A DNA stretch of 64,000 bases from Cyanidioschyzon merolae (taxonomy: Eukaryota): NCBI GenBank assembly GCA_000091205.1, contig AP006488.2, one strand, 5' to 3'. Of the stretch, positions 1 to 49,861 are shown in pieces. The notes beneath the pieces were generated by a model. The model did no database searches, had not been told where the DNA came from, and saw only the letters and a program-made list of their open reading frames with translations. How positions within the stretch are numbered: the first letter of the stretch is position 1; every line of letters starts with the position of its first letter. The position numbers were made by a program, and so were the translations under genes.

Positions 1-677
1 TGGGACGCGCTGTGGGAGGATTATACAAAGCCCAGGTGGGCTCGTTTGCGAATGAATCTGTACTGTGGGAAGCAGCGGGCGTTCGCCAACTTTTTCAATC
101 AGGTGGGCGCCCTCAAGGAGATTGAAAGTCAGAGGCTCGTCGTAGCGTACGGAGCAACGCGCTGGAAGACCCAAAAACGGGACTATGCCAGCTCCAACGA
201 CAAGAACGTACAAGGAGTGTGCACGGCGTTTCGCTGCGATACCTGCAGATGAGTTTCGAACATCGTATACACACCACGAGCTGGGATTTACACTTCAGAG
301 AGTCGAGATGGAAACGTGCCAACGAAGCCATGAGGAAATAGCAAACTACGGACCGCTGATGGGAGAGCAAATGGATAAGAGAGCGAAAGTTCGTGGACTA
401 CTTGCGCTGGTGAGCGCAACCAGTGATGGCAAGAAACGTATGGTATTAGGGAACCGAGACTTTAACGCCGCTACCAATGTAAAGAGATGTACGGTGACAG
501 AAAGAAGACCTCCAGAGTCGACAAGAGAGAACTTTGTTAGACAATCACTCAAAGTGGAACTATATGAGAAACAGTTGGAAGCAGTTGTAGGTGACCGGTC
601 CGAAAAGGCTGGGAGGCGTCTGCACGTCAGGTGGAGACGTCGTGTCTAGGGCGTGTTTGCCACTACTGTACACCGCT
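1..677 (+). mobile_element. Fanzor/TnpB-like element, family A copy A1. This is the 3' portion, truncated by the window start. It encodes the C-terminal RuvC-III region and the conserved 3' tail.
   Basis: ORFs 46..252 and 185..649 translate to '...NRDFNAATNVKRC...ESTRENFVRQSL', homologous to A2/A3 at roughly 85-90% nucleotide identity. Conserved tail 'GGCTGGGAGGCGTCTGCACG...CCACTACTGTACACCGC' ends near 676. Frame switch around 185-252. Confidence 0.6.
600..677 (+). ncRNA. Candidate omega-RNA/fRNA scaffold: the conserved 3' tail of family A copy A1.
   Basis: About 80-100 nt are conserved in A1, A2 and A3 downstream of the shared stop position, which is unexpected for neutral sequence. The location matches where omega-RNA is encoded in TnpB/Fanzor systems. 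Confidence 0.3.
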
Positions 678-954
678 GGCCGCAGCATTTTTCTTTTGAG
701 TGGCGCTCGTTATTGGTTTGCGGTGCAGGCTCACTCCTCAGTGCAATCTCTAATCCGTTGGCACTTATCTGCCGCAGACTCGAGTGGACACGCTGAGAAC
801 TGGTGTTGAAAAAGGCCGAAGCTGAGAGCCGGCTCCCAAGCTGCTCGCACTCGACAGCGTTTCTCGTTTGCACTTTGGCTACGGCCAGCGCTGTTCTCGG
901 CTGATGCGTTCCTCCACAGGGTGTCGCACGGAGTTTTCATAACCGCCTCCCTTC

Positions 955-2745: not shown

Positions 2746-3595
2746 GAATGTGTCAGCGTGTTTGCTGCGGATCCCGGTGGGATCTGTCACGTACTCGCTA
2801 TCGTCAAGTTGCGAAGCATCCGCACATACTACTGCTATGCGCTCTGCCGTTCTGGCACCTTAACATACGCCGTTCATGCATGCGAATTGCATGCAGTCTG
2901 TCTTTTATCCAGAAGAGATCTCATCGCCATCACTGTTGCGACTCTACGGTCTTGCTGCTGAACCAAAGGCCGGCGACCTGGTATTTGCTCCAGTGCGCTC
3001 TGTGCCGTTCTCTGTCGACGAAGACAGACGCATCCATGGAGCTCGCTGTCAATTGATGCCTTCACACGAAGCTGCCTTTTGGAAGCGATGGTATGGACGA
3101 AGAGCGCTACGAGGCATCGGGATCTTGAGGAATGCACGCTCAGCGCGATTCTTGCTGAAATCCTTGCTGTTTGCGCGGAGTCTTGGTATTTGGGGCTTCT
3201 GGTGGATAGGGTTTCGCCTTTCGAGTCATTCCCCGAGGCCTGATGCTATATTCTTTCCGTGTTCTGCCATGGAAACACAAGCTCATTCTTCGTGCTATAG
3301 CAGCGATCCATATGTCTTTTGAGGGAGCCTCTTGGGCGACCGCCAAGGGAGTCGGTCGTCATACAGCACCGAGCTGAGCAAGCAGCAAGGTATTGGATGC
3401 GAGCACGAATCCACACGGCAAATAGGGAACAACGATGTGAAATTGTTCATAAAGCAGCCAAAGTGCTTCATGGTATGAATCGCTTCGGGCTAGCATAGTT
3501 AACTCAGGATGACTTCCAATACCTGCATATGCACCAGGATCGATGTAAAATGGCGTGCCTCGTGCACCTAAGGGGGAGCGCATATGTCTTTTAGT

Positions 3596-3812
3596 GATGT
3601 TCTTTGACAATACGGACACTACCAGGTGTGTCGGGGTTCGTGTCCCATACTCATTCTCTGCGACAAGACGAACACTACCAGGTGTCTCGGGGTTCGTGTC
3701 CCATACTCATTTTCTGCGACAAGACGAACACTACCAAGCGTCTCAAGGTTCGTGTCCCATACTCGTTGTCTAGAACAATACGGACACTACCAAACGCCTC
3801 AGGGCAAATGCG
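3596..3812. repeat. Tandem repeat of a roughly 57 bp unit in about 3.7 copies. Each unit contains 'GGGGTTCGTGTCCC', which resembles a tRNA B-box (T-loop).
   Basis: Direct reading shows units starting near 3607, 3663, 3719 and 3775, for example 'acaagacgaacactaccaggtgtctcggggttcgtgtcccatactcattttctgcg'. Confidence 0.8.
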
Positions 3813-5097: not shown

Positions 5098-5927
5098 ACG
5101 GCCTGAGCAGGCAGTCCGAGTAGAGCATTTTTATTTCGTGGCGCTCTGGAAGGGAACCGGTGCGATCGCGACAGGGATTTCGGGTCCACGGCGGCCTAGA
5201 AAATCATAGAGCAGAATACGTCAACGTAAATAGGCATGCTAGACAACACGAAAGTAGGCCAAGCACATTCCTATGTGAATCAGGCCTGCATGCGGACACT
5301 ATTTTCGGGCTATGAACGGCATGAAGCCAGGGTAGGTGACAGCCCGGCACGAAACTGCTGAGCACGGTAGATATTGCGGGCACGTCGGCACCGGAGCGAC
5401 ACCATCGCTGCAGCGCTGCGGATCGAAACATCTTCGATGACCGCACTGGTATGATGGTTACGCTCTAGGAAGCGTTTCGGGTATGGAGCGGATGCTCAGG
5501 CCACGAAATCAGGAGCGTTATCGCACCAAGCGCCGGCCGGTGGACGCACCGCCCAGCTTCAGTGAGCACCTTGAGAGCGACCATCGCCGAGACACCACAA
5601 AACCCTTCGATCTCCGTGCGGCAATAGCGGTTGCAAAGGCTTCTGCAGCGCCACAGCAAGCGTCTGGGGCAGGTCAGATAACGGTCTATCTAACGAATTT
5701 GCGGACCACGCAGATTCTATTTACCGCAGTAATACTGGACTGGAGCATCTGGAATACGGACGCGTCTTCACGAAGACGCCAGTCCCTTCCAAAGTTACTG
5801 GACGCTTTTCAGCACTTGCGCGTACCTGGTTCGACTCCCAAGCGCCAAATGAGGAGATAAGTGTACGTGCAGCATCGTCTGACGGAAGCGCGCGATTCTT
5901 TGTACCGCGCGGGAGACTCCGGAAGTC

Positions 5928-21390: not shown

Positions 21391-22925
21391 AGAAAGTACA
21401 AAGAGTTGATTGGTAACTGCTATGCCGCTCCAAACTCACTCAGGTGCGTTATGGGGTACACTACGTAAACGAGTCGGTATGCGAGCGAACAACAGCGCGA
21501 GCGACTCAGTTTTCTCGATGCCAAAACGTTTAGATTGACCAAAGATCCCAGATTGCGGGATGCGTATTGATGATCGAAAAAGCGTCCACCATGCTGCAGC
21601 ACCCTACCTCCAAGTTCTATTTTTCGCACTTCCTTTCAGATATACTGGTTATTTCTTAGGTTCTGATTTGCACCTAACATGCCATGAGCACCCGTCCTGG
21701 CGCATATACCGCTGGTGCAGATGCATCACGGAGACGGAAAAGCTTTTCCAGCACCACCACTGAGGGCGTCGAATCGAGGAACGCTTCACCTGGTACGGAT
21801 TCGCAGTACATAGTCATGCTGAAGGCCTGCGAGCAGCGCAGACAGACCTACAGCCTGCGGCAGCGAGAAGCGGCATGCCAGGTGTCCACCGCGAACAGGG
21901 CGACGCTCAGAGGCGTCATACCCGCTGCGAGCTCCTGAATGAACTGCGTTGCGGACAAACTGCTCACATCTCACTACAGCATCCGTCAATTGCGGGGGCG
22001 GGAGGCGGGTATGCAGCGCTAGCCCGGGAGACTCGTTCAGCTCGCGGGACCTTCCGCTAGTACAGTGAACTTTTGACAATATGGAAACTTGTTCCCCATG
22101 TAACGTTTCTTGTGGTGGTGAAAAGAGATTCTAGTCTCGTTGCTATCTAGTGGTTAGTTTCTGTTCTTCTCTCTATAGAGCGGTCCGTACGTGCTCTCCG
22201 ATATCAGGAAGGTACGAAACGCGACGCGCATCTCGCCGTTACACATCAACGCTATCCTGATGATTAGCGTGTTTCTCTATCGTACAAGATGTGTTTCGGT
22301 TGAAGCCATAGCAAATTATCGTCTTTCGATTCAGCTGTGCTCCAGCCCTAGCATTAGCGTTTTCAAGTGCTTTTTCGTGGTTTATAGCAGAAGCGTTCGT
22401 AGCGGGTTCGTTTTCAAAAATAAAAAAAGAAAAGCCATGGGGAAGGAAATGGAGGATCCGGTAGGCTCGGCGCCGCCGATCGCCGAAAACAAAAACTAAA
22501 AACACTGCCAAGCCCAGAGGATCAAGACAAGGCGAATATGAAGAAATGGGAGGCTCGACCTCAAAAGCGACACAAAAGGCGACAGTACGACGAGAATGTA
22601 GTGAAAGCATTTCTTCTACTCAAGACCAAGAATCCCTACAAGCAGGAGTTGCGAAAGGCCATCAGAAACCGTGTCGCGTCGTACTCCATCAGTATCATTA
22701 AGGCTTCTTCAGGACTGATGCATAAGGTGAGCGAGACGTATCGCGACATCACGGACAGCAGAACAGTCGAGGTTCCGGGAGAATTCTTCAGCGAGGCCTT
22801 CATCAAGCACCTGCTACGTGGCACAGGGGAAACTTCGAGGAGAAATGAGCGAGTGTATGCCCTCCAGGAAAATTATATCGTCTAACGCTTGAACGGTACG
22901 ATATAAAGGTGAGCTCGAATTTTTA

Positions 22926-23100
22926 CATCTACGGGGCGGTGAAGTACACCACGAATCTGAAGAAACATTTGAGCATGAACCTAAAACGCTTCACGAAACG
23001 CTGCATCATATTTAAATCTACGGGGCGATGAAGTACACCACGAATATGAGGAACCATTTGACCATGAACCTCAAACGCATCATGAAACGCTCCATCTTTG
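22926..23100 (+). repeat. Tandem duplication of roughly 88 bp x2 inside A2, absent from A3.
   Basis: 'atctacggggcg(g/a)tgaagtacaccacgaat...' appears twice in tandem. A3 encodes this segment ('YTYGAMKYITNLKN') only once. Confidence 0.7.
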
Positions 23101-24599
23101 CGCTGTACCCGGACCTCTCACACAAAGGGAAATGGGCCACCATGAGTAGCATCACGAACGATCGACAGCATGAACAGGAGATCGAATTCGCCGGTGAGGA
23201 GGCATCGCCCAGTACCATGAATGAAGCTCCTGTGGTCCGTGCGGCTGTCCAAGAGCACCGCGGAGGTCTGGGGCTGGCCAATCCAGAAGAAAAGGTATCA
23301 GAGATGGAAAAAGATGCTATCCCCTGAACCTGCGGTATTTCGTGTTTTTGGAACGAAGAACTCGAACGCAAGGCGCATATGGATCTGGGCATGGAGGTAT
23401 GTTGAGAGTCTTTGAAACGGATGGCTGGGCTTCTGGAGAAGCGCTTCAACGTCGTTCCGTTATGAAAGATCATGTCGTACTGTGTCACAATCGATTCCAG
23501 AGTCCTTCATGGCATCATGAGGAAGATTTGTTCGTAGTTCGATTCAGGCAGGGAGAGGTTCACCGGCGAAACCGGGAGACTTGTCGGAAGAATATCTTTG
23601 ATTTCAAATGTCTTAAAAGGAGCACAAAAAATGTATTCAGGGGTACGATTGGGAGCGATGGACTACCCATACGTTTGCACTATCGGCGCTTGATGGCGGA
23701 TCGTACGACGCAGGAGGTGCAGAAGAACGACTTTGTCGTTGACGTGGATTCTGCGAAATCGAATGTCAAGACCACCGCAGCACCCAAGTGTGCGCAAGAT
23801 GGTATCGACGGCAACTTATGCCAGAAAGGCATGTGTCTTATAACGTTCGCGAGAGCGAGACACTAACGAGAATCAGGAATCATGAACATGAGGAAAAAAA
23901 GTGAGACTTCGAATACAGATGTGAAGAAGCACCTGGAAGTGATCAGCCAGGCCACTTGCCATGGAGCGGACTTGCAAGCCTCTGTAGCGTTCATGAAAAT
24001 TCGAGCTGCTCATAACGAGTTGCTGTGGGAAAAGTACTCAATGACCCGGCGAGTTCGCCAGCGTCTCAACCTGCACTACGGAAAGCAGCACGCACTTGCC
24101 AATTTCCTCCATGAGGTGAGCGCCCTCACGGAGTACATGAGTCTAAGCCTCCTAGCAGCATACGTAGCATGGCGCTTGGCCTTCCAAAAAAGGGATCATA
24201 CGCTCTCCATCGACGAGAGCGTACCAGGCGTGCGCACAGCGCGTTGTCACAATACCGATGGATGAGTTCCGAACGTCATGAATACAGCATGAGCTGGGAA
24301 GTACACTTCAGAGGGTCAAGACGGAATAGTGCCAGCGGAGCCCTGAGGATATTGAAAAAGCATGGAGCGCCGACAGAACAGGAAATGGCACGGAGGGCAA
24401 AAGTTCGAGGAATCCTTGCATTAGTGAGTGCAAGCGACAGCAAGAAACTGATGGAGTTTGCGAACCGGGACTTTAACGCCGCTATCAATATCAGACGATG
24501 TGCCGTGCCTGAGACGAGCGCCGAAGAGCTGAGACGATCCAACTTCATGGGCAGCCCCTCAAGGCGGATTTGTCGAAGAAGAAGTCGAAACCGATAGTA

Positions 24600-24705
24600 G
24601 GTGGCCGGTCGCAATAAGCCGGGAGGCGTCTGCACGTGGGCGGCCAGACATATGGTCTATGGCGAGCGGAGCCTAGCGCGCTGCTCGCCACCACCGTACA
24701 CCGCG
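24600..24705 (+). ncRNA. Candidate omega-RNA/fRNA scaffold: the conserved 3' tail of family A copy A2.
   Basis: 'ggccggtcgcaataagccgggaggcgtctgcacgtgg...ccaccaccgtacaccgc' is homologous to the A1 and A3 tails downstream of the TAG stop. Confidence 0.3.
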
Positions 24706-25568
24706 TGCAAACCTGCGCCGCTCGCAAGGCGTTCGTTGTTGACGGCCGTGGTCGAATCCGCAGAGGCATGCAACACCCCTCGATGATATGTCATCTGCAG
24801 GAGCAGCATCGTCGTACACAGTCGCATCGACGATAAATGAATCACCTGTTTGTCGGGAATGATGCGCTCTGAGGCGTTCATTTCCCTGACGCGTACCGAG
24901 CGCACCTGTTTCCCTTTGCGATACCGGACCAGGTTCAGTTCAAGCGAAAGCGACCCTGTACAGAGTACCGTTTGATCCCTCGGAAACTGGCCGCGTTTGC
25001 GCTCTCGGAAGAGACAGGTTCGATGATTCGTTTCTGTATCGTCTAGAAAAATCGATCCCGAGACCTGCGAATCACACCCAAGACCCTACTGAGTCCTGAA
25101 ATCGACGACGAAACGTACAGGAACACCGGTAGTGAGCGGCATCCGCTGGCGTCTGGTCAATTCTGGAAGCATACCAGGGAGCGCCTGTGCTAGCATCCAT
25201 ACATGCCCATATTGGATCCGATGCGCTAGCGTCACAATACGCGTCGTTTCCGATTCGGAGTTCCAGCTTTGAACATCGTGGATCACACTCGCGCTTCGGT
25301 GGTTTCCAGGGTTCTCGCCTGAAACGGCGCCGATGCAGCCGCACCGATGTCTTTCGATGCTCCTTCGAACAAGAATCATTTTTGAATATAATACTGGTGC
25401 TGTTTTTGTGTTGCTTATCGTGACCAAATCATCTGAGTGACATGCTCTGCCATGCGCGCTGCGCGCGCATCGAAATCGTCGATTATTCAATGCTGCATCA
25501 CGAACGCAGACCCGGCGCCATGTGTCGTAAGGAGGCGTCGCTGATCCACAAGCGCTGCACCTGGCGTA

Positions 25569-26711: not shown

Positions 26712-26880
26712 GATGCGTGCGTGCGTGCGTGCGTGCGTGCGGCAGCGACACTGTGACGCCCTGGACCGTACAAAGCGTCTTAGATTCGTATCATCAGAAT
26801 TTTACCGGCAGCGACATCCTGAAGCCCTTGACCGTGCAAAGACCCTTAGATTCGAATCATCAGAATTTTATCCCGACCTG
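26712..26880. repeat. (GTGC)n microsatellite followed by a direct repeat of roughly 57 bp x2.
   Basis: 'gtgcgtgcgtgcgtgcgtgcg' followed by '...ttagattcg(t/a)atcatcagaatttta(c/t)c...' twice. Confidence 0.7.
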
Positions 26881-27559: not shown

Positions 27560-28465
27560 GAAGCAGTTGCAAGAGCGCTCTGTGCGCGCTTACCCCCAGC
27601 ACTACATGTGCCTTTCTGCTACGGATGGGGCGCAAACGTGCATTCCGCAACAGGCGCAAGCCTACCATCCATTGCGGATGCGCGCATCAGGGGCGTGCGC
27701 AGCCCGCGCACTGGCGGTGCCTGCCAGCTCGGACGGCAGCATCCTCCGCGATGTACCCACAGTGGCTTCGTACGGAACAGATCCTCCACGTTACCTCCGG
27801 CGTATAAACTGAGGTTAGGGGCTATTCCTACCGCCACCAACGTAATGCGTATACAGACAGAAGATGCAAAATCAGTACATAACTTTACCACCAATACTCT
27901 TCGATTGCGGGCAACAGAGTCGCATGAATGGAAGACACCATTCTATTTAAAGCCACAGCAAAGAGAGATGTAAAGGAAGCAGTCACGGAACAAGCCCCGA
28001 GTGGCTGATGTTGATGAGCGTGTGCATCGCTGCGTCGAACACACGTGTGTATGCGCCTGTGGCGACGACACGTATCTGTCCAATTTGTGCAGATATGGAT
28101 CTATTGTGTACCATTCGGATACACGTCGCTATGTTCAAAAAGAGCCATATATACACTTTTTTCCCTAAAATAGCCGAAGTCGCCTCAGAACGATCGTGCG
28201 CCCGCTGGGCTTGTCCCGGGTGCCGACTCGGGAAGCAGCTTCGTGCACAGGCAAACATCGAAAAGCACGTGCTGCTGCTTCTGTACGGCTCCAGGCATAC
28301 GCTACACGCTTTTCTGCTCATAGACAGCGGAAGCGACAAGTTCGGTTACTGCCTTGAAGACTTAGACGCTTTAGAGAGACCATCATATCGATTGTTTCAG
28401 TTTTCTGACCTCCTCGTAACCACCACGCTCGCATCTCTGTTGCAACGGCACGCGCAGCAGCTCTC

Positions 28466-29446
28466 ATGGCAGCCAAAGCTGAACCCGGGCATCCAGAGAG
28501 TGGAAAGCTGCATCAAAGGTGGCGCAAAGCCAAGGAAGCCGGTAATCTGAGCACGTTTGCATCACCTGCAGAGCTGCGAGCACTCGTCCAAGCGAAACTG
28601 ACACCCGAGGAGCAAGTGCGTTTCGGGATGCAGTGTGCAGGGCTGGCAGCCAAGGCACTTGAGGTACTCGACAAGTCGCTTACATCTTTAGAGCAAGACA
28701 TTGAAAACGAGTCCTGTGACTGGGAAATAGAATCGGACGCTGCCATGGACCGTGTTGCCAGGCGATTCCTTGCCGATCTCGAACAGCTAAAGCAAACTGG
28801 CAGCGCGCGTCGACTCACCCAACTCAGTATTTGGCGTCGCATCAGTCGCTATGTCGTCCTGGCGGAAAGGCGAGCAGCGGAAGCGTCGCGCCAACGCGAG
28901 CATGAACTGCAGGCTGAAGGCAGTCCTTTTGTGAGGCAAGTCGCGAAGATCGCGGACCAGGCATCCAAGACTCCGGGATACCGCCAGGTCGTTGCCTGGG
29001 AGCATCTGGAAGAGCTTGCAGACGCGGCAACTGCAGATGGTGCATTCGGTTCGCAGTCGCGGTCGATGTCACGTATCTTACGTCGCCCAGAAAGTCGGTT
29101 TCGACTCTTGCTCACGAAACTAGAGCTTGGCGAGGAGCTCTGCACACCCGAGGAGCGGCGTTTGATGCTAGCATTGGATACCTCTGATGCGAGACTTGAA
29201 CCCGAACGCATGCGCTCGAGGAAGAGGGCACCTGGTGGAGCGCAGGATGGCGCCTCTGCAAAGCGCGACCACGGGAGGTCTGCATCCGTTTCGTCGTCGT
29301 CGTCGTCATCGTCGTCGTCGTTAGATCCAGAGCACGAGGACGACGTGCACCCAGCGGCCAAGAACGCGTCTTCCGTGAGAAAGAAAAGACGACATCACCG
29401 GCGACGATCATCCAATAAAAACGAAACACTGGAGAATCCTCAGTGA
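28466..29446 (+). CDS. Hypothetical coiled-coil protein with a poly-Ser tract.
   Basis: ORF with ATG at 28466. (TCG)n encodes 'SSSSSSSSSS' around 29290-29320. Confidence 0.55.
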   Translation: MAAKAEPGHPESGKLHQRWRKAKEAGNLSTFASPAELRALVQAKLTPEEQVRFGMQCAGLAAKALEVLDKSLTSLEQDIENESCDWEIESDAAMDRVARRFLADLEQLKQTGSARRLTQLSIWRRISRYVVLAERRAAEASRQREHELQAEGSPFVRQVAKIADQASKTPGYRQVVAWEHLEELADAATADGAFGSQSRSMSRILRRPESRFRLLLTKLELGEELCTPEERRLMLALDTSDARLEPERMRSRKRAPGGAQDGASAKRDHGRSASVSSSSSSSSSSLDPEHEDDVHPAAKNASSVRKKRRHHRRRSSNKNETLENPQ

Positions 29447-30440
29447 GCTAGCATTTGAGCGAGATTGCCGCTGAATCATCGCCGTGCCCTGGCCCTGTGG
29501 ATATCGCATGATGCCTCGTTTACAGCGGTTCAGTCATGATACTGGGTGGTGATTATCGCCGCCGGAATACCTCAGGACTAGACCGCGGATCGTTGGAGGC
29601 TACGCTCGCGTCCATCGCGTGTACCATGCGCTGCAAAAGTGGTGCTTGTCTGCAGCTCCACAAAGAGCACATGATCGCGTGCTGTGCTGCGAGCACCACG
29701 GCGCCGGCCTCTGTCGGCAAACGCGCTCAAAGGCGTACTCGCGACAAGCATGAATTCAGCAGGAATATTGGCGCTGGTTGAGGCACTACGACTGACTATC
29801 GAGAGACCAATCTCAGCAACCGCAGCATGCGTCGATCACTGGGGCGCAGCTTAAACTCCAGCATCGATGCGGCCGCGTCAGAGCCAGACCTGCAGACTAG
29901 TGGACAGAGCGCAGCATGCCTCATTCTGGATTTCGCAGAAGTACCCGCCAGAGACGCTTCTCATGGTAGCCAGTGGCGGATCGCGTCTATTTCGGTACCG
30001 GGAATTCGGACGGATTCCGCGTCCAGTCGACCGGGGACGGTTCACGCTCTCCACTCGGACGTCAACGCGTTTCAGTTTGGTGATGAAGGTGCTGCATTCA
30101 TCGACCGACCAGTCTGCATGACGATTCGACGAACATCGGGCGGAACCTTTGATGCATACCTCTGGAGCATGATTCGCAGAGGTGTACTTTTTTGCAGGTC
30201 GTCGAGGTGGAGCGTGTGGCGAGAGCCACATATTTGAGCGACCTCGCACCGGGCGTGATCCAAGACACCATTCGGCTGATGCTCAAGCGTGCCTCGCGTA
30301 CCCGACATGTCGTTGCTCACCTTCGTGATGCTGGTGTGCTTCTATGGGTAGCGTACTTGCGCTCGTTTGCGAAGCGTAGCGGACCTTGAGGACAAATGGC
30401 ACGCTCCAGCAGCCATGCGCTTGCATAGGTCATGCATTCA

Positions 30441-35210: not shown

Positions 35211-36507
35211 TTATATAAGCACGACTGCAGTCTATGGGAGAAGTATCTTCATGCTTTGTCGTTCGAATCATCTGCTGAGATCGTGCGAGTGAGCGGAGCT
35301 TCCATGGGAAGACGCGCGATACTACAGAGACCCCGGTGAAACGTCTAACGCTCTCCCATACGTCAGCGCATGCAACGTCTGTGTACGCCCGAGCGGTGTC
35401 TAAAGGTCAACGCTCCACGCTCCGAAACGCTTCGCTTCGTCTGCAAAGCCTCATGGGATGACGGAAGCTCCCTGATCATGGAACGGAGGCCTGGCTCTCC
35501 TGTTTTCTTCCAGTATCCTGGATCGAGTCGTGAACCCGACTCGTTATTGCGCTAAGCACTCGTGGATACACCGTGCCAAAGCTGCCGCCAAGTTGGTTCA
35601 TGTATACTCAGGGAAACAAGTCGATCATGTTCAGTTATAAAGAATGTCCCGTTTTCGCATGACGATCTCGTATCCTCGACTTGGAAAAGCACACGGAGCA
35701 AGTGCGCTGTGCTGATGGCTCAAGGCAGCGCTGCAAGCTCGTGTTCCGCACCTTTTGTACAGCGCGACGCGCTTTCATTTTAAAGAACGTGAGCGGGGCT
35801 CCTGATTTGTCCACAGTCTCACCTACAATCATCACCGCTTATCTGCCGCTTCAGGATCTGGAACGATCGACCTGCGCTCATCCTGCACGAGCAATTGTTT
35901 GCATCGTCTCCTAGACGTGAAACGGTGTCGCGGGAGCGTGTTACCGCCTGACGCCTTTCGTTCCCAGAAAACAAATCCGCGACTCCTGGACTTGCTCCCG
36001 AGAGGCTGTCAAAAGTTAATGATCGACGCTCTGGACTCACTGAAGCCGCTCAGCGGGTGGTCAAAGCGTCAGCCGCACAAAGCGCTCCCAAGGCTATGGT
36101 GCCTCAAACAGCATCATTCCCTAGGTACGTGTTCGAGAGAGCCAGACTTGAACGCGAGTTCTACGTTATCCTAAGAAGACGCTGTGGTGTGTCACAGACT
36201 TCAACGGCGGCGGCAACTAGCAGGGCGCAGCGATATATGGTAGGTCCCTCAGCGTTTGAGTGAAACTCACTCATCCTGACATTGTCAGACAAGTGCTCAC
36301 CACTGGTGGCCAACGCTCACGTAAAGCACCGCTCTCTTCTGTACACTGCTGAAAGTTAGCGTCCCAGACGCAACAAACAGCCGCGCTACCAACGAGAACG
36401 CTACTGAGGCCGTCGTGCCCCAGGCGCGACACACCCCGCGTACACGAGTACAACAGAGCAATGAGCCAGTGTCGCTCGCTGCTGCTTCGTTCCTGAATCT
36501 GCCTCGA

Positions 36508-38802
36508 ATGTGGCTGCAAGTTCGCGGTTTCCGAGAGGCTTCCTTCCGTCTGGGATATTCTCACAGCGCAAGCAGCTCCACTCTGTGGCCACCAGCCGAT
36601 TACCCCACGCTGAGGATCGCCTGGGACCTAGAGGCTTGGCTCCAGCAAGCGCTGGTTGCGGAGCCGCTGACGCCAGCGCTCGCTCTTCGCCCAGCAGACC
36701 GAGCTGCCTGGCAAGTCATCGACGACTGTGCTTTACTGAACGCTTACGGTTGGCTGTCACCGAGCTTCATAGAACGCGCGATCGCTGACCTGGAACGCTG
36801 GCTCTCAGCACTCGGGCGCGAAGTGCAAGAACCTCCGGGTACAGGACGTGGCCCGCACTTGCAGGTTGTACTCCTTGCACCGTCGTCTCACTATATTCAC
36901 TGGGGAGCACAACTACAGCACTTTCGAAAACAGGAGCATCAACAACGTCAAGCACTGGAAAAGGCATGGAACCTGCTAAAGATCGGAACCTCCACAGGAG
37001 ACCAGGCAGCGCTGCGAGCAGGCAAGCGACGTATGGCCGCTATCCAGCGCCTGGTCTATCCGCGCTCGGTTTGGTGGCAGTTACAGCAGGCCCTGTTGCA
37101 GCATGATTGGAAAGGGGCCCGACTTGACTTTTTGGACCCGGCCATAGACCTGGATGTGCCCGAGGTACCAACATGGCTGGTCGCTGCAGACCTCTACGCT
37201 GCAGGTCTGGTGGATGGGGTCTACGCTCCGCACCGAGAAGCGCTCGTTCTCGCCAATGCCCCTTGGGCGCTGCTTTTACTCCGAAACCGCCAAAAACTTC
37301 TCGAAAACGATCGATTTGTATCGTTGATCGACATTATAGCAGGCTGGCCCCTGGACTTTGGACGCTATGGTGCTTTAGCCTGTGCCATCAGTGGACTGGA
37401 TCCTTTCTGTCGACCACATTGGAGCATGGCAAGGAGTGGTGCGTCGTCCATGTCCTTTGAGGAGGCCATGGCACGAGCTCAGTCCATGTTGCTGAGCCAA
37501 CCTGATAACGATTCCACCGCACAGGCAAACGAGCATGTTGAAGATGAGCGTACCGCGCTGAAGTGTGTCACTTTCGTGATATCGGGGTCAGCGTCCATGT
37601 GGTCTCATACAGCACCCATGTCAGGCGAGCATCCCCGACGGCATGCTTTCGCTTTGGAAAGCGCTGCTCTGGAGTCGTCACCAGTGCCTGGCGAGAAAAC
37701 CGTCAGCGCGAACGTGCCAGGCACCGTCACCGCCGAGTCGTACGCGACGCTGACTCCAGGTCAAGCGCCGGACGTTGCACCCGAGGCATCCAGAGATGCA
37801 GCCGATACTTTTCCCACTCCAACGGCGGTGACGTCTTTCGGCGAGACATTGACCGGGACGCGTCTGAACGAGTCAACCCCGACTCGAGCTGGGTGCGAGC
37901 GCTGGACGGCGGACCCCGTTGTCACGCCAACAAGTGCCGGAGACGCATCCAACCAGGGCAAGCAACAGGCGACATCAAACAAACTGGGCGCAAGCTCACC
38001 CGTGACTACTCGGTCGTCCGTGGCAGAGACATCCCGCACGGACCCCGAACAGGAGGCACTGCGGTGGCATCAGCATATATGGCTCCCAGTGATCGATACA
38101 CCCTATCTCCGTCGCCTTTCTGAGCAGATACTCGGCTGGCGCAGGGCCAACGACACCCAAGGCAGCCTTAGTCTGTGGTTTCAACATCGTCGTTACACTT
38201 GGCAAGCGAGTCAGGGGCGTAGTTTGCGAGCAACGCTGTCGCAGTTGCCCCACTGGTTGCAGCGAGTTCTTGTCCGTGCTCGGTTGACGGATAAGGTGCC
38301 ACTTATCCAAGGACTGGAGAAACTCGTCCTCCCAAAAGCTGAGTCGAGCTCGGAAGTATCGACAGCGGTGCTGTTGTGGCCATGGGCGCTCTTATTGCTG
38401 TCACTTGCACTGGGCTGGTTTGCCACCGATGCGGATCACTGGCATGATCGAGTGGTTTGGTGGGTATCCCCAGATAGCGTTCTCGGGGGCGAAACGAACG
38501 CTTCGGCCTGGACCAATTACTTGGTGAAGAACTGGCCCCCGTTTCTCGCGGAGCAGATTGCAGCGAGTGAGATCATGAACTTGATCCTGGGTGTTGAGCT
38601 ACCCGGTCTGCATCTGGCATCCTGCCTGACCTTGGAAGTATACGCTCAACTTCGAGTCGCGTTCACAGAAAGCTACCGCAGTATTCGCTGCTATCTGGAC
38701 GAAGGCACGTGGCGAGCATTGGAGGCACTGCTGTCAGAAACGCTGAAGCCTGTGCAGAAACAAGCGCCTACTTCGGAGCATCACGCACAGCATGCGTTGT
38801 AA
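36508..38802 (+). CDS. Hypothetical protein, about 765 aa, with a C-terminal hydrophobic segment.
   Basis: Long ORF. The track start at 36415 is GTG; the first in-frame ATG is at 36508. No domain recognised. Confidence 0.55.
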   Translation: MWLQVRGFREASFRLGYSHSASSSTLWPPADYPTLRIAWDLEAWLQQALVAEPLTPALALRPADRAAWQVIDDCALLNAYGWLSPSFIERAIADLERWLSALGREVQEPPGTGRGPHLQVVLLAPSSHYIHWGAQLQHFRKQEHQQRQALEKAWNLLKIGTSTGDQAALRAGKRRMAAIQRLVYPRSVWWQLQQALLQHDWKGARLDFLDPAIDLDVPEVPTWLVAADLYAAGLVDGVYAPHREALVLANAPWALLLLRNRQKLLENDRFVSLIDIIAGWPLDFGRYGALACAISGLDPFCRPHWSMARSGASSMSFEEAMARAQSMLLSQPDNDSTAQANEHVEDERTALKCVTFVISGSASMWSHTAPMSGEHPRRHAFALESAALESSPVPGEKTVSANVPGTVTAESYATLTPGQAPDVAPEASRDAADTFPTPTAVTSFGETLTGTRLNESTPTRAGCERWTADPVVTPTSAGDASNQGKQQATSNKLGASSPVTTRSSVAETSRTDPEQEALRWHQHIWLPVIDTPYLRRLSEQILGWRRANDTQGSLSLWFQHRRYTWQASQGRSLRATLSQLPHWLQRVLVRARLTDKVPLIQGLEKLVLPKAESSSEVSTAVLLWPWALLLLSLALGWFATDADHWHDRVVWWVSPDSVLGGETNASAWTNYLVKNWPPFLAEQIAASEIMNLILGVELPGLHLASCLTLEVYAQLRVAFTESYRSIRCYLDEGTWRALEALLSETLKPVQKQAPTSEHHAQHAL

Positions 38803-38982
38803 ACCCGCCTGGTTTCTTTGGATTCAAAAATGCAACGTCAGCGGCTCGACGAGTCCCGAGTAACACGTCGATGAGGTTTCCATGCTCTGAAACCCCCGCC
38901 TGGTTTCTTTGGATTCAAAAATGCAACGTCAGCGGCTCGACGAGTCCCGAGTAACACGTCGATGAGGTTTCCATCCCGCAGA
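38803..38982. repeat. Direct repeat of roughly 88 bp x2 beginning at the stop codon of the upstream gene.
   Basis: 'aaacccgcctggtttctttggattcaaaaatgcaacgtcagcggctcgacgagtcccgagtaacacgtcgatgaggtttccat' appears twice. It contains the short inverted repeat cgacg...cgtcg. Confidence 0.8.
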
Positions 38983-44110: not shown

Positions 44111-45450
44111 CATGCTCAGACAAAATCGCAAAGGCTGGTATCGTCGTTGACATCGGGCGCCGAGCCAAATTCGGGTGCCTATACCCATTTTAGGAAACCT
44201 GTTCCATGTTGTTCTGGAATGAGCATAGGCCTGCGACGGGAGCTATGGCCCTCGAGCTGCTTCGAGAAAATCTACGCACAAGTTGTCGAGTCTCTACCCT
44301 GATCAGTGATGGAATATTCACTTCGGCAGGAGCCTGCCATGGTACCAGCACCCTTTTCGAGACATCAGCGAATCTCCGTTGCCCGAAATATTCGCGAGGG
44401 CATGCCGCATCGGGCTGCCGCACTCCGCCTCGATCATGCCGGTCACTGCGAGAAGCGTTCATATTGGATACCTAGGATACATGCGCCCTGCAATGCGCTT
44501 TGACGATCATCACTGACACCGCATTCACAGAGACTCTATGACACGTTGATCGCAAGCAGCGCGATCATAAAGTGTGTCAGTTTGCCGGTAGCTCGACAGT
44601 CGTGTTCGACAGACGCTGGCGAACGCGCTGTCGCGTGTACCACCAGTTCCACGCTGCCTCAGCGTTGAACAGACCAGGTGTGTCGCAGACATGAACCATT
44701 GTGCTCGCTCAAACAGACCGCAACCTGCTGGGCCGAAATCCAAACAAAGATTCGACCGCGTGAATGATACCGACGTCACAGGATGCATCCGGAAACTGTT
44801 CTGGATACGTGTAGCGTTCCCCGGGCAACGACATTTCAGCAGAATTCGTGACAGTACACGCACGCTCGCTCGCACGCACGCACGCATCGAGCACTACACG
44901 CTTTGAGAAAATCCTGAACATACCTGGATAAACCAGATGCTTTTTGCGACGCCTCCTCCCAGCGCGCAGCGATATCGTGTGCACCCCACAGACACCGCCG
45001 CGTCTCTTCTGGTGACCAGCAATGCTCCCAGCTCCACGGTACCCGAGGTAGATGCGTCCAGCACCGGGTACGACCCGAGCCCAGTACGCTGCTCCAGCGG
45101 AACCAGCGCCTCCGATCACCCACAGCGCTGGTACCGACGCGCTGGATTCGCGGGCACGCGACGCTGCGCACCGAACCGAAATGCCCTACTGCGTACCGCG
45201 CGATGAACGAACGCGAATCTGGGCCCCGCGACACGATTGAATTCGGGATTCCAGCTGGTACTCGCGACGCACCAGGTATGCTAGGAACACTAACGAACGA
45301 AAAGCGAAGCTAGACTTTCGGTTTGCTAACTCGGATTTCTTGTTGATTGAAACGGATTGAAAGCGGCTTTTAGTGTCTTGCTCATCGCGGAACGGGGGTC
45401 ATCTCGAACGAGCGTGGTAGGGTTCGTGTCTCTCCCCTGTTTTGCCGCGA

Positions 45451-48400
45451 ATGCGCGTCTCTCGCGGCCCAGCCGCCTACCACAGTCCGGCGAGCACGAA
45501 CGCTTCACCACTTCGTTATGGGTCGGTTCAGGGGAGTTTGGGGCACCAGGGTTCACTGTTTATGGAGCGTTCGCGGTCCGCTGCGGTGGTGGTGGCACCA
45601 ACCGGCATGGTATACTGTCCGCGTGCGCCACGCTGGATCATGAAGGCGGTGCGCGCTATCGGTGTTGCGGGCTGGGGCGGCAGCGGCGGCGGTCGCTCCT
45701 GGACGCTGAGTGGGGCGCGGGGTCCCCTCGAGACTGCGCAAGAGTCTGGTGAGGAGCAGTTGAGCGAAGAGAACCCAGAGGGCTCTGAGCGACCAGCCGA
45801 GAGAGACAACGGCGCTGGCAGCGCTGGTAGCCTCACAGCACACGACGTTGTGGTCAGTATGGGCGGCGGGAGTCTCGGCGCGACCGTTTTGGGTAATGAG
45901 TCTTTCATCTGGACCCTGAGCGGATGGAGACAGTCGGTACGAGAGGCTCAGGAGCGAGAGGATGCGAGGCAACTACGTTCCGCTTTCGACCGAGAGGAAA
46001 TGGTCAGTGGTTACGAAACTCCGGCTACTGGCACGTCGTTGCTGTCGACTTCCATCGAGCGGCGCGGGGGTGCTGCGCTCGGCTCGGCGTTGAGCTTGAC
46101 GACTCGCTCACCGTGGGCGATCATTGGCGCGCTAGCGTCCTGGCTTGAGGATCGCTTCTTTCCTCTGTTTGGAGCCGAGGAAGCAGAGAATATCATGGCT
46201 GCCGCAGAAGGCGAAATGCCACGCGCGGCCCGCACTGTCGCCAGCTCGGCAAGCAGTATCACAGGTAGCATGATCGACGAGGAAACCGCCGCTAACCGAC
46301 GCCTCCAAGCCGCACTGCTTCGTCAGAGCGGGTCTACCAGAGACAGACGGGTCGATGCCTTGCAGTACGTTCTAGATCAAATGATTGACCCGTTTTGCCG
46401 CGCTGTACTGGCGAGCTTCGCCGCCGCAGCGACAGATTCAGCTGCGTCAATTCTGGGACCGCTTCTGTTCCTCTACGGGCACGCCTACCATATGCAACGA
46501 GGGGAGATGCAACTAGGGAGCGAAGGAGATCAGGTTTTAATGGAGGAGGACTTGGCAAACATGCCGCGGGCAATCATGGCGCTACGAACGCTAACTGAAT
46601 TGTACAGTGAACTGTTCTCTACGTCAAATGCGGGTTTCGGTAGATCAAGGGGCAACAGCTCAAGTACGCTGAATCAAGCAGGGACACCACAGCATGCTGC
46701 CTTGATCAGCACCAATGCGTCGTCGGCGAATATTGCCGTTGTGCCGTCAAGCAGAAGCAGATTGGGACGAACGTTATCAACGCAATCGGGGAACAAGGCG
46801 TCAGCCCAAGGATCGCTCTCCGATGCTGGGGAGGTTTTGGATGCATTTGCCACGCGGGCGGAACTGCTGGCTGGGACCACAGAAGCCATGGATCCACCGC
46901 TGGCGTCGTCCTTGACAACGGAACCAGCGGTTGGGAGGGCGAGATCGCCAGCGGACGCTGCGGCTGCGATTGCGTCCAGCAGCGCAACCCTACCGCTGAC
47001 GGGCGCATACGGTCGGGAAAGTGAGCCGGCTGATTCTGCTGCAACGTCGAGTGACACCGATGCGGCACTGTCGGAAGCGGTCAAGTCGCTGCGCCATGCG
47101 CCCGCCACGGAGACGGAACGCCCGGAGCTCCGTGCAGCCGCTGGCGCTAGTGCTGCTGCTGCTGCTGTCGGTGCTCCAGACGTTGCTACGATGCCGCAGG
47201 CGGCGGCGGCGGCTGCGGCGGCGGTGTCTCAATGCGCTTTTTCGGAGAACGATCGAACAGCGCTGCTCGAGGCGGCACTGGCCCGCATTGAAGCGCTGGA
47301 GCGAGAGGTGGACTTTTTGAACCGCGAGCTTGCAGCATTCCGTGATGACTGCGTATCGAGCAATCGCGACCTGCACAATTGCGTCGACGCTTGGACGGCA
47401 ATCGTGCTCTCAGAGACGCGCAGTGTTGCGGCAACAGAGCGTGCAACCATTCGAGCACTCGCACGACGACTGCGTAAGCTAGAGCGCCAAATTTTCTCGG
47501 AGAACGTTGCAGCAACTGCTGCTACATCGCCGGAACACTCGAATCGAGGTGAATCTAGAAGGGCAACCCGAGCTAGCAGTGAGCGAGCAGAGGTGCAGGC
47601 GGAAGGCTACGGGACAGCCTCACGGTCAGCGGCGCAGCCGTGGCCAGCAACCGCGACAGCCACGGAGGCTACAGAGACATTAGAATTCGTGGCGGGAAAG
47701 CAGGGGCCGCCCACAGCGTCGCCTTCAGCTCAGGATTCGCGGCTCTTGTACAGTGAGATCTCCAGCGATGACCCTACGGAAGCGCCAAGTCGAGCGATGC
47801 AACCGGGTAGTGGCGCGGCGCGTGGCGCACCGACTGTTACGGTCCGCTCTCCGTCGGCGGGGCCCGTAGCCGCTTTGTCATATCTCCTCAGTGAACACGG
47901 GAGTTTCGGCAGCGACGAAGACCCTCTTCTTACGGCTTTCCAGCGCGCAGTCGGTCTCGGTAACGCCTTGGGCAGCGGCGATGACACCGGTGAGTCCGCC
48001 TCGTCGACACCACGGGGCGGCACACCGCGATCCGGCGGCCTGCATGGCCCTGGTGCCGGCTCACTGCAAGCACCTGCGCAACAAAGCACATATCCAAGCG
48101 TACGCGGTGCCCAGAGAGCAATCATCGGCAGCCTGCCCCGCTCGACGAGTGGCTCGAATATGGTCCGTATTTCATCGCCGATGCTTTCGGATCCCATGTC
48201 CGGCTCCGGTGCGCTATCGAGCTCGCTACCAGTGACGAGTTCACTGCGAACCCGGGTGGCACCTACGGTGAGCATTGCGACCGGCGGGCTGCCCGAAAAC
48301 CCGCACACTTCGCGTCGCATCCTCCGTGACGGTAAATGGGTCCACGAGGAGGCAGCGTCTAGTCCGGGCGCTGCCTGGGGTAGGGCATCGGCTTCGCGAG

Positions 48401-48516
48401 CAAGTCGCCGAGAACGAGAGGCCGTCCTTCGACGCCAGATAGAGAGTATGCAAGTGGCACTGGAAGAAGAGCGGCAACGAAGGCAGATCCTCGAAGAGCG
48501 GCTCCTCCGTCAGTAG
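45451..48516 (+). CDS. Hypothetical large Ala/Ser/Gly-rich protein with C-terminal coiled-coil segments.
   Basis: 3 kb uninterrupted ORF. The track start is TTG; the first ATG is at 45451. Coiled-coil-like 'LEAALARIEALEREVDFLNRELAAFRDD'. Confidence 0.55.
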   Translation: MRVSRGPAAYHSPASTNASPLRYGSVQGSLGHQGSLFMERSRSAAVVVAPTGMVYCPRAPRWIMKAVRAIGVAGWGGSGGGRSWTLSGARGPLETAQESGEEQLSEENPEGSERPAERDNGAGSAGSLTAHDVVVSMGGGSLGATVLGNESFIWTLSGWRQSVREAQEREDARQLRSAFDREEMVSGYETPATGTSLLSTSIERRGGAALGSALSLTTRSPWAIIGALASWLEDRFFPLFGAEEAENIMAAAEGEMPRAARTVASSASSITGSMIDEETAANRRLQAALLRQSGSTRDRRVDALQYVLDQMIDPFCRAVLASFAAAATDSAASILGPLLFLYGHAYHMQRGEMQLGSEGDQVLMEEDLANMPRAIMALRTLTELYSELFSTSNAGFGRSRGNSSSTLNQAGTPQHAALISTNASSANIAVVPSSRSRLGRTLSTQSGNKASAQGSLSDAGEVLDAFATRAELLAGTTEAMDPPLASSLTTEPAVGRARSPADAAAAIASSSATLPLTGAYGRESEPADSAATSSDTDAALSEAVKSLRHAPATETERPELRAAAGASAAAAAVGAPDVATMPQAAAAAAAAVSQCAFSENDRTALLEAALARIEALEREVDFLNRELAAFRDDCVSSNRDLHNCVDAWTAIVLSETRSVAATERATIRALARRLRKLERQIFSENVAATAATSPEHSNRGESRRATRASSERAEVQAEGYGTASRSAAQPWPATATATEATETLEFVAGKQGPPTASPSAQDSRLLYSEISSDDPTEAPSRAMQPGSGAARGAPTVTVRSPSAGPVAALSYLLSEHGSFGSDEDPLLTAFQRAVGLGNALGSGDDTGESASSTPRGGTPRSGGLHGPGAGSLQAPAQQSTYPSVRGAQRAIIGSLPRSTSGSNMVRISSPMLSDPMSGSGALSSSLPVTSSLRTRVAPTVSIATGGLPENPHTSRRILRDGKWVHEEAASSPGAAWGRASASRASRREREAVLRRQIESMQVALEEERQRRQILEERLLRQ

Positions 48517-49060
48517 CATGCGGTACGGTGATCATGCGTGCATACGAATATCCTAGTTCAATTTTGTCTGCATTTATGTAGCCTTGCACCAATGCCCCGA
48601 ATACGTAGCATGCGGTACGGTGATCATGCGTGCATACGAATATCCTAGTTCAAGTTCGTCTGCATTTATGTAGCCTTGCACCAATGCCCCGAATACACAG
48701 CATGCGGTACGGTGATCATGCGTGCATACGAATATCCTAGTTCAATTTTGTCTGCATTTATGTAGCCTTGCACCAATGCCCCGAATACACAGCATGCGGT
48801 ACGGTGATCATGCGTGCATACGAATATCCTAGTTCAATTTTGTCTGCATTTCTAAAGCCTTGCACCAATGCCCCGAATACGTAGCATGCGGTACGGTGAT
48901 CATGCGTGCATACAAATATCCTAGTTCAATTTTGTCTGCATTTATGTAGCCTTGCACCAATGCCCCAAATACACAGCATGCGGTACGGTGATCATGCGTG
49001 CATACGAATATCCTAGTTCAATTTTGTCTGCATTTATGTAGCCTTGCACCAATGCCCCGA
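48517..49060. repeat. Satellite-like tandem array: a roughly 92 bp unit in about 6 copies.
   Basis: Unit 'agcatgcggtacggtgatcatgcgtgcatacgaatatcctagttcaattttgtctgcatttatgtagccttgcaccaatgccccgaatac' with a few point variants. It starts at the TAG stop of the upstream gene. Confidence 0.85.
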
Positions 49061-49861
49061 GGGCATGCGAACGTTCATATTGTGATGGTTTGCGCGCTCT
49101 CTCTACCCGAACGAGAACATCGCGAGCACATCACGACACGATCATAGAATCGTGGCACCTGTGCCCTAGTCGTCATGGAGCGGCATCGTTGCGGGTATTC
49201 ATCGGGAGAACGCGCCAGTGTTCCGCTACATGGAGTTGCTCGTGCCAGCATCACGCGTCGCACTGTGGATTCAGTGTGTTCATCGGCGTGTCGCAAGCGA
49301 AGACTAGAGCGCAGGCTCAGACCTAAAGCCGGCGATTGTGCCCATGCGCGCCTCGTTGGTACCGTGTGCGCGTGCCATGCGCTCGCTCACTGTGCACCGC
49401 GAGCCTGCAACAGGCTCGGCATTTCACAACGTTCCTCGTCAGAGTCGCGCGGTCGTGTCCAGCGCTTCGGCCCCGCGGGGAAATCCTCGACGAGGCCGCG
49501 AACATGTGCTTTCCCGGATCATGCGCAACGGATCAATGCACAGGTTTCCCAGCGAAAGTGTCGCGTGCTCTGATGGAGCGTTGGTCGGTGTGTATGCGTA
49601 CGCGTATGCACACGTATGTGTGTGCGTATGTGGACACGGGTGACGCCGTTGAACAAGAGCCACAAGGATGCAGCGTCGCCCAGCGTGCACGTTTAGGCAT
49701 GCTGAGGCGAACAGGTACTGTATGCATGTCCCGCGAACAGAGCGAGAACGAAACACCCTGCACCTTATGCGCCCTCTCACCCAAAACATTTACAATCACC
49801 CAACACTACCAGTTTAACTTGGATAAAGGGATCGAGTATTGAACGTGCTGCTGGTCCTCGT

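Follow-up and report, generated by a model that had tools for sequence, protein, structure and literature searches.

The window analyzed here is a 64-kb stretch of Cyanidioschyzon merolae 10D chromosome 6, running from CMF014C onward, as exact protein matches to four of its long ORFs show. Self-comparison and six-frame translation showed that it holds three related, decayed, and frameshifted TnpB/Fanzor-like segments, which we call A1, A2, and A3. They are copies of CMe-1A, a published Fanzor1 element of C. merolae (PMC3627910). Our subject is the tail that forms the 3′ end of this element, which, judged from its sequence, is on balance most likely the scaffold of a Fanzor guide RNA (ωRNA, also called fRNA) overlapping the end of the open reading frame (ORF) and the right end. 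The segments lie as follows.

1 to ~725, plus strand: segment A1, cut by the window start.
~21496 to 24750, plus strand: segment A2, delimited by self-comparison.
~57740 to 60438, minus strand: segment A3, delimited by self-comparison.

CMe-1A has been described as a family of ~150 copies in C. merolae that are ~80% identical to a consensus of ~3 kb (Bao & Jurka 2013, PMC3627910). In that account the element has no inverted repeats, its target-site duplication could not be determined, its classification was left open, and its 5′ 635 bp constitute a separate repeat, TE-N2_CMe (PMC3627910). Segment A2 has the published layout, with a TE-N2_CMe module of ~670 nucleotides (nt) followed by the Fanzor unit.

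1 to 649, plus strand: 3′ part of the A1 Fanzor1 pseudogene, with a frameshift near 175, the motifs DEFRTS (RuvC-II-like) and NRDFNAA (RuvC-III), and the stop codon TAG at 647 to 649.
21496 to 22175, plus strand: TE-N2_CMe module, the 5′ part of A2 (~670 nt), with a T-rich run and a CGTTTT...AAAACG-type hairpin at its start.
22175 to 24750, plus strand: Fanzor unit of A2, an older copy with many stops and frameshifts (tail model at 24580 to 24748, tail motif at 24687 to 24702, right end at ~24748 to 24752).
57740 to 60438, minus strand: Fanzor unit of A3, 5′-truncated by ~55 nt (tail model at 57740 to 57891, tail motif at 57784 to 57799).

A sequence-only reading of the window had proposed that three TnpB/Fanzor-like ORFs end in a common tail, and self-comparison confirmed this at all three places. 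The tail motif GCCACTACTGTACACC occurs at 659 to 674, 24687 to 24702, and 57784 to 57799 (minus strand) and nowhere else in the window (0.25 occurrences expected from shuffles); likewise, GGCTGGGAGGCGTCTGCAC occurs only at 607 to 625, 24617 to 24635, and 57836 to 57854 (minus strand) (0.01 expected). A covariance model of the tail matches exactly three places in the window, namely, A3 (132 bits), A1 (128 bits), and A2 (87 bits), with the best copies elsewhere scoring 140 to 157 bits.

A metagenome scan gave at least 421 confirmed relatives. The best 80 of these, together with one locus from a protein look-up, represent 49 distinct insertion sites as judged by their downstream flanks. These 49 independent copies, among them those of the window, are the basis of what we say on family conservation (loci outside the window are cited by L numbers). 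The relatives come from hot-spring-type Joint Genome Institute (JGI) samples, in which the Cyanidioschyzon lineages are 87 to 94% identical to 10D in flanking genes. Segmental duplication is ruled out because the flanks are unrelated among the three window copies and the 49 loci. The metagenome matches (at least 421), differences between lineages in the insertions that they carry, and the many RuvC halves that are open suggest that CMe-1A may be active, now or recently, in hot-spring Cyanidioschyzon.

With a single conceptual protein, the PDB gave no match and Pfam a weak one to the TNB family alone. As such single-protein searches were uninformative, a profile was needed. The profile of 12 family proteins matches the Fanzor1 structures of SpuFz1 (8GKH; E = 5.2e-23), Parasitella PpFz1 (9CF0; E = 2e-14), and Guillardia GtFz1 (9CER; E = 8.8e-8), and the family is therefore a Fanzor1 family. 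In the profile alignment, the RuvC motifs ADPGNTNI, VDEFRTS, and NRDFNAAIN align with DPNKRDI, DEYKTS, and NRDM of SpuFz1. All three motifs are present in A3, whereas A1 and A2 have the last two (the DPG motif was not detected in A2). The conceptual A3 protein retrieved metagenome proteins only, with the best match in P0001 (752 amino acids [aa], 71% identity). Bao and Jurka described a C4 zinc finger between the TS and RD motifs, and their Fanzor1 classification includes CMe-1 (PMC3627910). By inspection, this interval reads THHELGC...(10)...KC; it thus has a pair of His and a pair of Cys residues and no second CxxC pair.

The 3′ end of the ORF required a corrected frame. The sequence-only reading had A2 and A3 ending at a common TAG, where A1 has TTG, and took all that follows as noncoding. 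The common TAG is literally there when the sequences are read from RuvC-III, but it is out of the family frame: A2 and A3 stop at it because each carries a 1-nt deletion ~45 nt upstream, near ...TTCA-TGG / GGAC-ACC. Across this position, the 49-copy family has the consensus codons GCA GTA GTA/G GGT (A V V G), and third-position variability persists in the alignment to about ...GGC CGG TCC. Read from NRDFN, the commonest first stop is a TAG/TAA 22 codons further on (647 to 649 in A1), which 18 of the 49 copies share and which ends the protein in ...GRRLHVSWRR(F/L)V*. The earlier TAG is the first stop in only four copies (A2, A3, L036, and L069), all with a 1-nt gap upstream. Thus, the ~66 nt that follow it belong to the ancestral C terminus, and the noncoding portion of the tail is the ~77 to 85 nt from the family stop to the right end. 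This C terminus is a basic extension specific to the family, SpuFz1 and the distant homologue P0043 ending earlier.

In 8 of the 49 copies, the first stop is a TAG directly after ...RPPE. The codon at this site (alignment columns 74 to 76; ~518 to 520 in A1) is hypervariable, being, for example, TCG, TTG, TGG, or CTG elsewhere, and the eight copies with TAG carry different hairpin types. The TAG is either a recurrent stop at one site or the end of an alternative, short C terminus right after the RuvC-III region.

The right end also lies further on than had been proposed. Similarity among the three copies was said to stop at 676, 24704, and 57783, whereas conservation runs ~45 to 50 nt beyond these positions, through a terminal hairpin. 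In the 49 insertions, each with a different flank, column conservation does not fall at ...GTACACCGC and reaches background only past ...GGTG. The hairpin is imperfect and 14 to 23 bp long; its 5′ arm starts from the CAC of GTACAC, and the ...GGTG of its 3′ arm is the end of the element. The hairpin foot sets the right ends at ~725 (A1), 24748 to 24752 (A2), and 57740 to 57743 (A3), and a BLAST alignment of L001 with A3 ends independently at 57740. With the right end ~50 nt further on, the three 20-mers previously taken as flanks and possible guides fall inside the element, where they are hairpin sequence; the one listed for A3, cgacgtcgttcgacttagaa, is one arm of the hairpin, conserved and seen again in other copies. 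The features at the two best-scoring tails of the window are as follows.

607 to 625, plus strand: best-conserved block in the ORF-overlapping part of the A1 tail, GGCTGGGAGGCGTCTGCAC, which codes for ...AGRRLH...
650 to 725, plus strand: noncoding tail of A1, with the remnant of a GGCG...CGCC stem, GCCACTACTGTACACC (659 to 674), and the terminal hairpin.
671 to 725, plus strand: terminal hairpin of A1, CACCGC ... GCGGTG, with 20 predicted pairs, a decayed variant 2; position 676 falls in its 5′ arm.
726 to 745, plus strand: flank of A1, caggctcactcctcagtgca, which would be the guide of any ωRNA made here, in place of 677 to 696; it follows from the right end and PMC10432273.
57743 to 57790, minus strand: terminal hairpin of A3, with the right end at ~57740 to 57743.

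The hairpin is kept in most copies despite differing sequences. For example, it reads CACCGUUGGCGUCGUUCGA-CUU-UCGAACGGCGUUGAUGGUG in L013 (19 bp), CACUGCUGCC.GUUCGA-CUU-UCGAA.GGCAGUGGUG in L001, and ...GCAACGUUUUUC-UUUU-GAAAGACGUUUG... in a type that we call variant 2. In 43 of the 49 copies, the region has a better fold on the sense than on the antisense strand (P = 1e-7), and the 58 nt of flank that come next fold less well than the region itself (P = 9e-7). Appositions of G·U outnumber those of A·C by 145 to 40. In an alignment fitted with the covariance model, which leans towards the structure, all 19 hairpin pairs show two-sided changes, and the observed covariation was reached by none of 500 shuffles and by no slid control. 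Over the family copies, strand bias, G·U excess, and model-fitted covariation strongly support the terminal hairpin. RNAalifold run on the 49 tails with their flanks gave a weak consensus (−5.5 kcal/mol) because MAFFT misaligns the hairpin variants, and this result was set aside.

Two loci depart from the usual hairpin. L071 has at ~2400 to 2436, instead of the G·U-rich hairpin, a perfect 15-bp GC-rich palindrome of unrelated sequence (CCGGCGAGCACGCGC-TCGT-GCGCGTGCTCGCCGG), which DNA fold-back or replacement explains more readily than stepwise compensation. L021 and L055 are the same through ...GGCGTT and then diverge, L055 having the full outer hairpin stem and L021 lacking it; L021 is either 3′-truncated by ~12 nt or recombinant.

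The tails had also been described as nearly identical. Their pairwise identity in the window is 57 to 67%, which is not above that of the adjoining ORF (62 to 79%). The constraint on the tail is instead read from its pattern of conserved stems, variable loops, and hairpin covariation: after the stop, the blocks GGGCG and CGCCACTACTGTACAC are conserved at the level of first and second codon positions, and the intervening loops are as variable as third positions or more so. This pattern bears on the possibility that the copies share a tail through common descent only, all being decaying relics of one burst in which the tail signifies nothing beyond membership in the element. The window copies are indeed pseudogenes, tail identity is equal to or below ORF identity both in the window and across the family, and copies are ~80% identical to the consensus. 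However, the conservation is block-wise, with stems conserved and loops variable, the hairpin arms vary in a compensatory and strand-biased way across subfamilies, and 49 different flanks have in common a single, defined end at which conservation falls steeply. Moreover, the 250-codon RuvC half of the ORF is open in 18 of 48 independent copies of ~80% identity, and retention of these open halves despite ~20% divergence places the divergence within active, selected lineages. We therefore regard descent alone as quite improbable.

Upstream of the terminal hairpin, averaged base-pair probabilities pick two further helices, a GGCG/CGCC stem and a long-range helix (H1). The latter would pair CCACUACUG with its exact complement CAGUAGUGG, which lies ~95 nt upstream within the ORF. 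The strands of this proposed helix in A1 are as follows.

582 to 588, plus strand: 5′ strand of H1, inside the ORF (codons A V V), CAGUUGU against the consensus CAGUAGU, with one mismatch.
662 to 668, plus strand: 3′ strand of H1, ACUACUG, within GCCACTACTGTACACC.

H1 is 84 to 94% paired, compared with 33 to 55% in slid controls. Folded by itself, the whole unit of ~140 nt gave in all copies tried a domain closed by H1 and followed by the hairpin, with folding z scores of −3.0 (L001), −5.6 (L013), −4.6 (L075), −3.0 (A3), and −1.5 (A1). A CCGGUC/GACNGG helix, in which most copies have a G·G mismatch and a few have compensated variants, was kept as one of two inner folds. The local hairpins AGAC-GUUUU-GUCU and GUCU...AGAC were dropped, as variant copies break their pairing rather than compensate for it. 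The tails of the distant homologues L082, L083, and L084 are structured but, each being a single copy, were uninformative and were set aside. A tRNA scan found nothing.

In characterized systems, Fanzor ωRNA/fRNA scaffolds lie on the gene strand from the 3′ end of the ORF to the right end (PMC10432273, PMC10530073), and the guide consists of the 14 to 21 nt of flank just past that end. The SpuFz1 ωRNA has a 75-nt scaffold and a 14- to 15-nt guide (PMC10432273), the GtFz1 ωRNA overlaps its ORF by 17 aa, and in ApmFz, conservation reaches into the ORF; fRNAs that abut the right end have been reported. The CMe-1A family places ~77 to 85 nt of sense strand between stop and right end. It is this fit in position, strand, and size, with a structure abutting the flank, that leads us to rate an ωRNA scaffold as the most likely identity of the tail. 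The earlier proposal of a guide RNA scaffold is thus partly supported, by the protein family and by the position, strand, and structure of the tail, and is modified in that part of the tail is coding, the right end lies further on, and conservation does not exceed that of the ORF. A literature search returned no study of C. merolae Fanzor RNA and none describing a CMe-1A RNA.

On this reading, the scaffold would comprise the last ~140 to 150 nt of the sense strand in active members and would begin within the last ~22 to 25 codons of the ORF. Its first domain would be closed by the long-range helix of CAGUAGU(GG) with (CC)ACUACUG and followed by the 14- to 23-bp hairpin. As the ...GGUG of the hairpin 3′ arm is the last of the element, the adjacent host DNA would supply the guide, of ~15 to 20 nt. 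The candidate RNA species would be ~90 to 170 nt long, with a 5′ end near GCAGUAGUGG or just past the TAG and a 3′ end 14 to 21 nt beyond ...GGUG. By analogy with other Fanzors, the protein would bind the tail RNA and cut DNA matching the flank next to a target-adjacent motif (TAM). For CMe-1A itself, we infer transcription, processing, protein binding, guide use, and a TAM.

Several observations weigh against a guide RNA. All three window copies are pseudogenes, A1 being frameshifted and A2 and A3 having stops or frameshifts (three in A2 and five in A3 within the 250-codon RuvC half); these loci are relics with partly decayed tails, which could be used in trans at most, as “ghost” loci. Tail conservation is at or below ORF conservation across the family as well as in the window, so conservation alone proves nothing. 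Covariation is weak outside the terminal hairpin: H1 and the GGCG/CGCC stem are complementary and conserved and barely covary, H1 is near invariant with two compensated variants only (L021/L055 and L004), an A·C mismatch occurs at the outer end of H1 in half of the copies, and the inner domain fits two folds about equally well. Even for the hairpin, covariation is modest in a sequence-only alignment, with 51 two-sided cells compared with 38 ± 4.6 (reached by 4 of 500 shuffles) and a covariation score reached by 45 of 500 shuffles. At the gathering score, Rfam had no matches in the window and four loci searched, and of the distant homologue tails, L082 and L083 are not matched by the tail model and L084 is weakly matched. 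No TAM-like motif was evident beside the left end, the sequences upstream of the Fanzor unit differing among loci. Finally, strand specificity and G·T pairs in the hairpin would be just as suitable for a signal in single-stranded-DNA transposition.

This last point leads to an alternative in which the tail is only the DNA-level end of a transposon, made up of C-terminal codons, a recognition block (GCCACTACTGTACAC), and a terminal hairpin, with no guide RNA. The hairpin would then be read on single-stranded DNA by an HUH-type enzyme, such as an IS200/IS605 TnpA-like or Helitron2 RepHel-like protein. In favor of this, the hairpin is strand-specific and lies exactly at the element end. At the 5′ end of TE-N2/CMe-1A there is another hairpin on the same strand, CGTTTT-N8-10-AAAACG, similar to variant 2 of the right end (ACGTTTTTC-TTTT-GAAAGACGT), and hairpins at both ends are the layout of IS200/IS605 and Helitron2 ends. 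In Chlamydomonas, Fanzor1 has been captured by hairpin-ended Helitron2 elements (PMC3627910), and the L071 palindrome, without G·U, is what DNA fold-back would give. However, we saw no transposase ORF in or beside the elements examined, and Bao and Jurka could not classify the element; the ORF lists of the upstream modules of L041 and L053 hold only short ORFs of 50 to 132 aa (no protein-family or whole-genome search was made). The Helitron termini (5′-TC or T ... CTRR-3′) do not fit a right end of ...GGTG with the hairpin foot at the terminus, and by inspection, the reverse complement of the prehairpin block is absent from the 5′ ends. Each hairpin has four or five ancestral G·U pairs, which is commoner in RNA signals than in DNA signals, and the left-end hairpin has almost no covariation support, CGTTTT/AAAACG of TE-N2 having one compensated variant (L053). 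We consider a DNA end without guide RNA unlikely, though a serious possibility. Where TnpB and Fanzor systems have been characterized, the ωRNA overlaps with the DNA signal of the right end, which makes a DNA end compatible with an ωRNA scaffold in the same tail.

In the ωRNA reading, too, the hairpin may in addition be read as DNA by whatever enzyme mobilizes the element. A more specific, combined form can also be considered, in which CMe-1A is a Fanzor1 element laid out in the style of IS200/IS605, with a hairpin on the same strand at either end and neither inverted repeats nor a target-site duplication. Its fast-evolving right hairpin would be both the guide-adjacent stem of the ωRNA and a signal for a single-stranded-DNA transposase. 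We hold this specific combination to be rather doubtful.

Since the structure is specific to the sense strand and lies directly downstream of the stop codon, the tail might alternatively be an ordinary element of an mRNA 3′ untranslated region (UTR), a hairpin for stability or 3′-end formation that guides nothing. Yet it is the element boundary, and not a poly(A)- or terminator-like signal, at which the structure stops, the hairpin is not followed by a T-run, and every characterized Fanzor uses the corresponding region as an ωRNA. An ordinary 3′ UTR element seems highly improbable.

A TAM would correspond to the sequence beside the left end of the element. We place the left end of the Fanzor unit at about CATCG-CGCTC-GGT-GAGCG, which contains a 5-bp CGCTC/GAGCG hairpin. 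Among the orthologous contigs compared, we found no empty site that would give the exact ends, the target-site duplication, and the TAM; at the A2 locus, every one of them has the element. In many loci, a TE-N2_CMe module in one orientation adjoins the Fanzor unit at its left end; in L067 (840 to 1464), the module there is reversed, and in L057 (6124 to 6740), it stands as a solo copy. Fragments of the element 3′ end that lack the ORF, extending from GGAAGCGTCTGCAC to the hairpin, lie in L037 (227 to 390) and L041 (317 to 459), ~800 nt upstream of another full Fanzor unit and within a module of ~1.1 kb common to several loci. Such fragments are reminiscent of the “ghost” loci in Spizellomyces.

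Compared with the published account of CMe-1A and TE-N2_CMe (PMC3627910), the element described here has the same organism, single Fanzor1 ORF, length of ~3 kb, copy identity of ~80%, and TE-N2 5′ part and the same lack of terminal inverted repeats and of a recognizable target-site duplication. That account predates RNA guidance, contains no 3′ tail, hairpin, or RNA, and left the ends open; here, the right end is placed to within a few bases and the terminal hairpin is described. With SpuFz1 (PMC10432273, 8GKH), CMe-1A shares the protein family, a guide that would be the flank just past the right end, ORF-less “ghost” ends, and a similar size (~75 nt for the SpuFz1 ωRNA and ~77 to 85 nt here). 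Unlike Spu-1, which has 30-nt inverted repeats and a CA/TAM motif at its left end, CMe-1A has neither in detectable form. Its candidate scaffold appears to reach ~25 codons into the ORF, more like those of GtFz1 or ISDra2 TnpB than that of SpuFz1, and has no RNA sequence similarity to the latter, for which expression and binding have been shown.

In the TnpB systems of IS200/IS605 elements (such as ISDra2), the ωRNA spans the 3′ end of the nuclease ORF and the right end, as proposed here for CMe-1A, with a right-end hairpin on the gene strand; neither kind of element has inverted repeats or a recognizable target-site duplication, and a left-end hairpin may also exist in CMe-1A. The differences are that no Y1 TnpA gene was seen in the ORF lists of the L041 and L053 modules, that we identified no conserved cleavage or target tetranucleotide, that the hairpin foot is the element end in CMe-1A and lies ~10 nt inside it in IS200/IS605, and that the host of CMe-1A is a eukaryote and its protein belongs to the Fanzor1 clade. 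The Helitron2 carriers of Fanzor1 in Chlamydomonas, CRe-1,2,3 (PMC3627910, PMC10530073), share the Fanzor1 cargo, a compensated 3′ hairpin, and a hairpin near the 5′ end, and the fRNA there maps to the 3′ UTR (PMC10530073). In contrast to Helitron2, we found in CMe-1A no asymmetric terminal inverted repeat and no variable target-site duplications. We know of no RepHel partner in C. merolae.

The 5′ part of the Fanzor ORF has features of its own. The acidic repeat unit listed below (...EEKKEA.PATQKV.DNDFVVDA.K...) is present four times in A3, more often in P0001 and P0018, and about once in A2, and it also occurs in L001 at ~5120 to 5450.

58722 to 59024, minus strand: acidic tandem repeats in the A3 Fanzor ORF, four units of 75 to 78 nt (~25 aa each) just upstream of RuvC-I.

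In A3, A2, and L001 (~60300 to 60340 on the minus strand and 22420 to 22500 on the plus strand of the window; 3937 to 4000 in L001), the main ORF is out of frame with the sole ATG near its 5′ end (MKKQ(V/I)DDPGG...), the ATG being in the +1 frame, and an intron, a frameshift, or a downstream ATG may be involved in the start of translation. The A2 pseudogene contains an 89-nt duplication at 22919 to 23096.

Two loci show rearrangement or polymorphism of the element. The same 1.27-kb host segment (window 60438 to 61703; L001 2401 to 3668) has an inverted Fanzor copy on its left in 10D and L046/L049 and a copy in direct orientation on its right in L001 to L003. Window positions 60438 to 61703 match the left flank of L001 but are not followed by the right flank of that locus. 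The breakpoints of the segment are the truncated left end of A3 (60438) and window position 61703, which points to rearrangement or independent insertions at both borders. At the second locus, L048 (1 to 1533), from a related strain, matches window positions 28258 to 29822 with 94% identity over 1.5 kb and carries an inverted pair of 3′ element fragments with the right end facing host DNA, whereas 10D has no element there. This is a polymorphic insertion, with no clean empty site: ~45 extra, unexplained bases separate the hairpin foot from the host sequence common to both.

Other repeats in the window consist of about eight 92-nt tandem repeats (core 96 to 97% identical) at 48423 to 49152, at and beyond the 3′ end of a 1,024-codon ORF (45442 to 48516); a perfect 80-nt direct duplication at 38804 to 38883 and 38895 to 38974 (91-nt spacing), starting from the stop of an ORF at 36415 to 38802; a 56-nt unit in three overlapping copies at 3585 to 3804; and a 66-nt unit in two copies at 26740 to 26870.

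The element and the kind of RNA are already known; what is new is the specific RNA candidate, the corrected frame, and a right end defined by the hairpin. For the three window loci themselves, the finding is ordinary, as they are dead copies of a catalogued repeat. The corrected frame and right end matter in small-RNA mapping, scaffold design, and target searches, where 20-mers taken from the earlier coordinates would be scaffold and not guides. If confirmed, the RNA would be the first Fanzor guide RNA to be described in a red alga and the first in a thermoacidophile. The alga grows at about 42°C and pH 2, and if the dual-role, IS200/IS605-style reading is true, CMe-1A would provide a naturally thermo- and acid-adapted Fanzor-ωRNA pair. 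A confirmed RNA would also help to explain the puzzle raised by Bao and Jurka, the long-kept coding capacity in a “nonautonomous” family.

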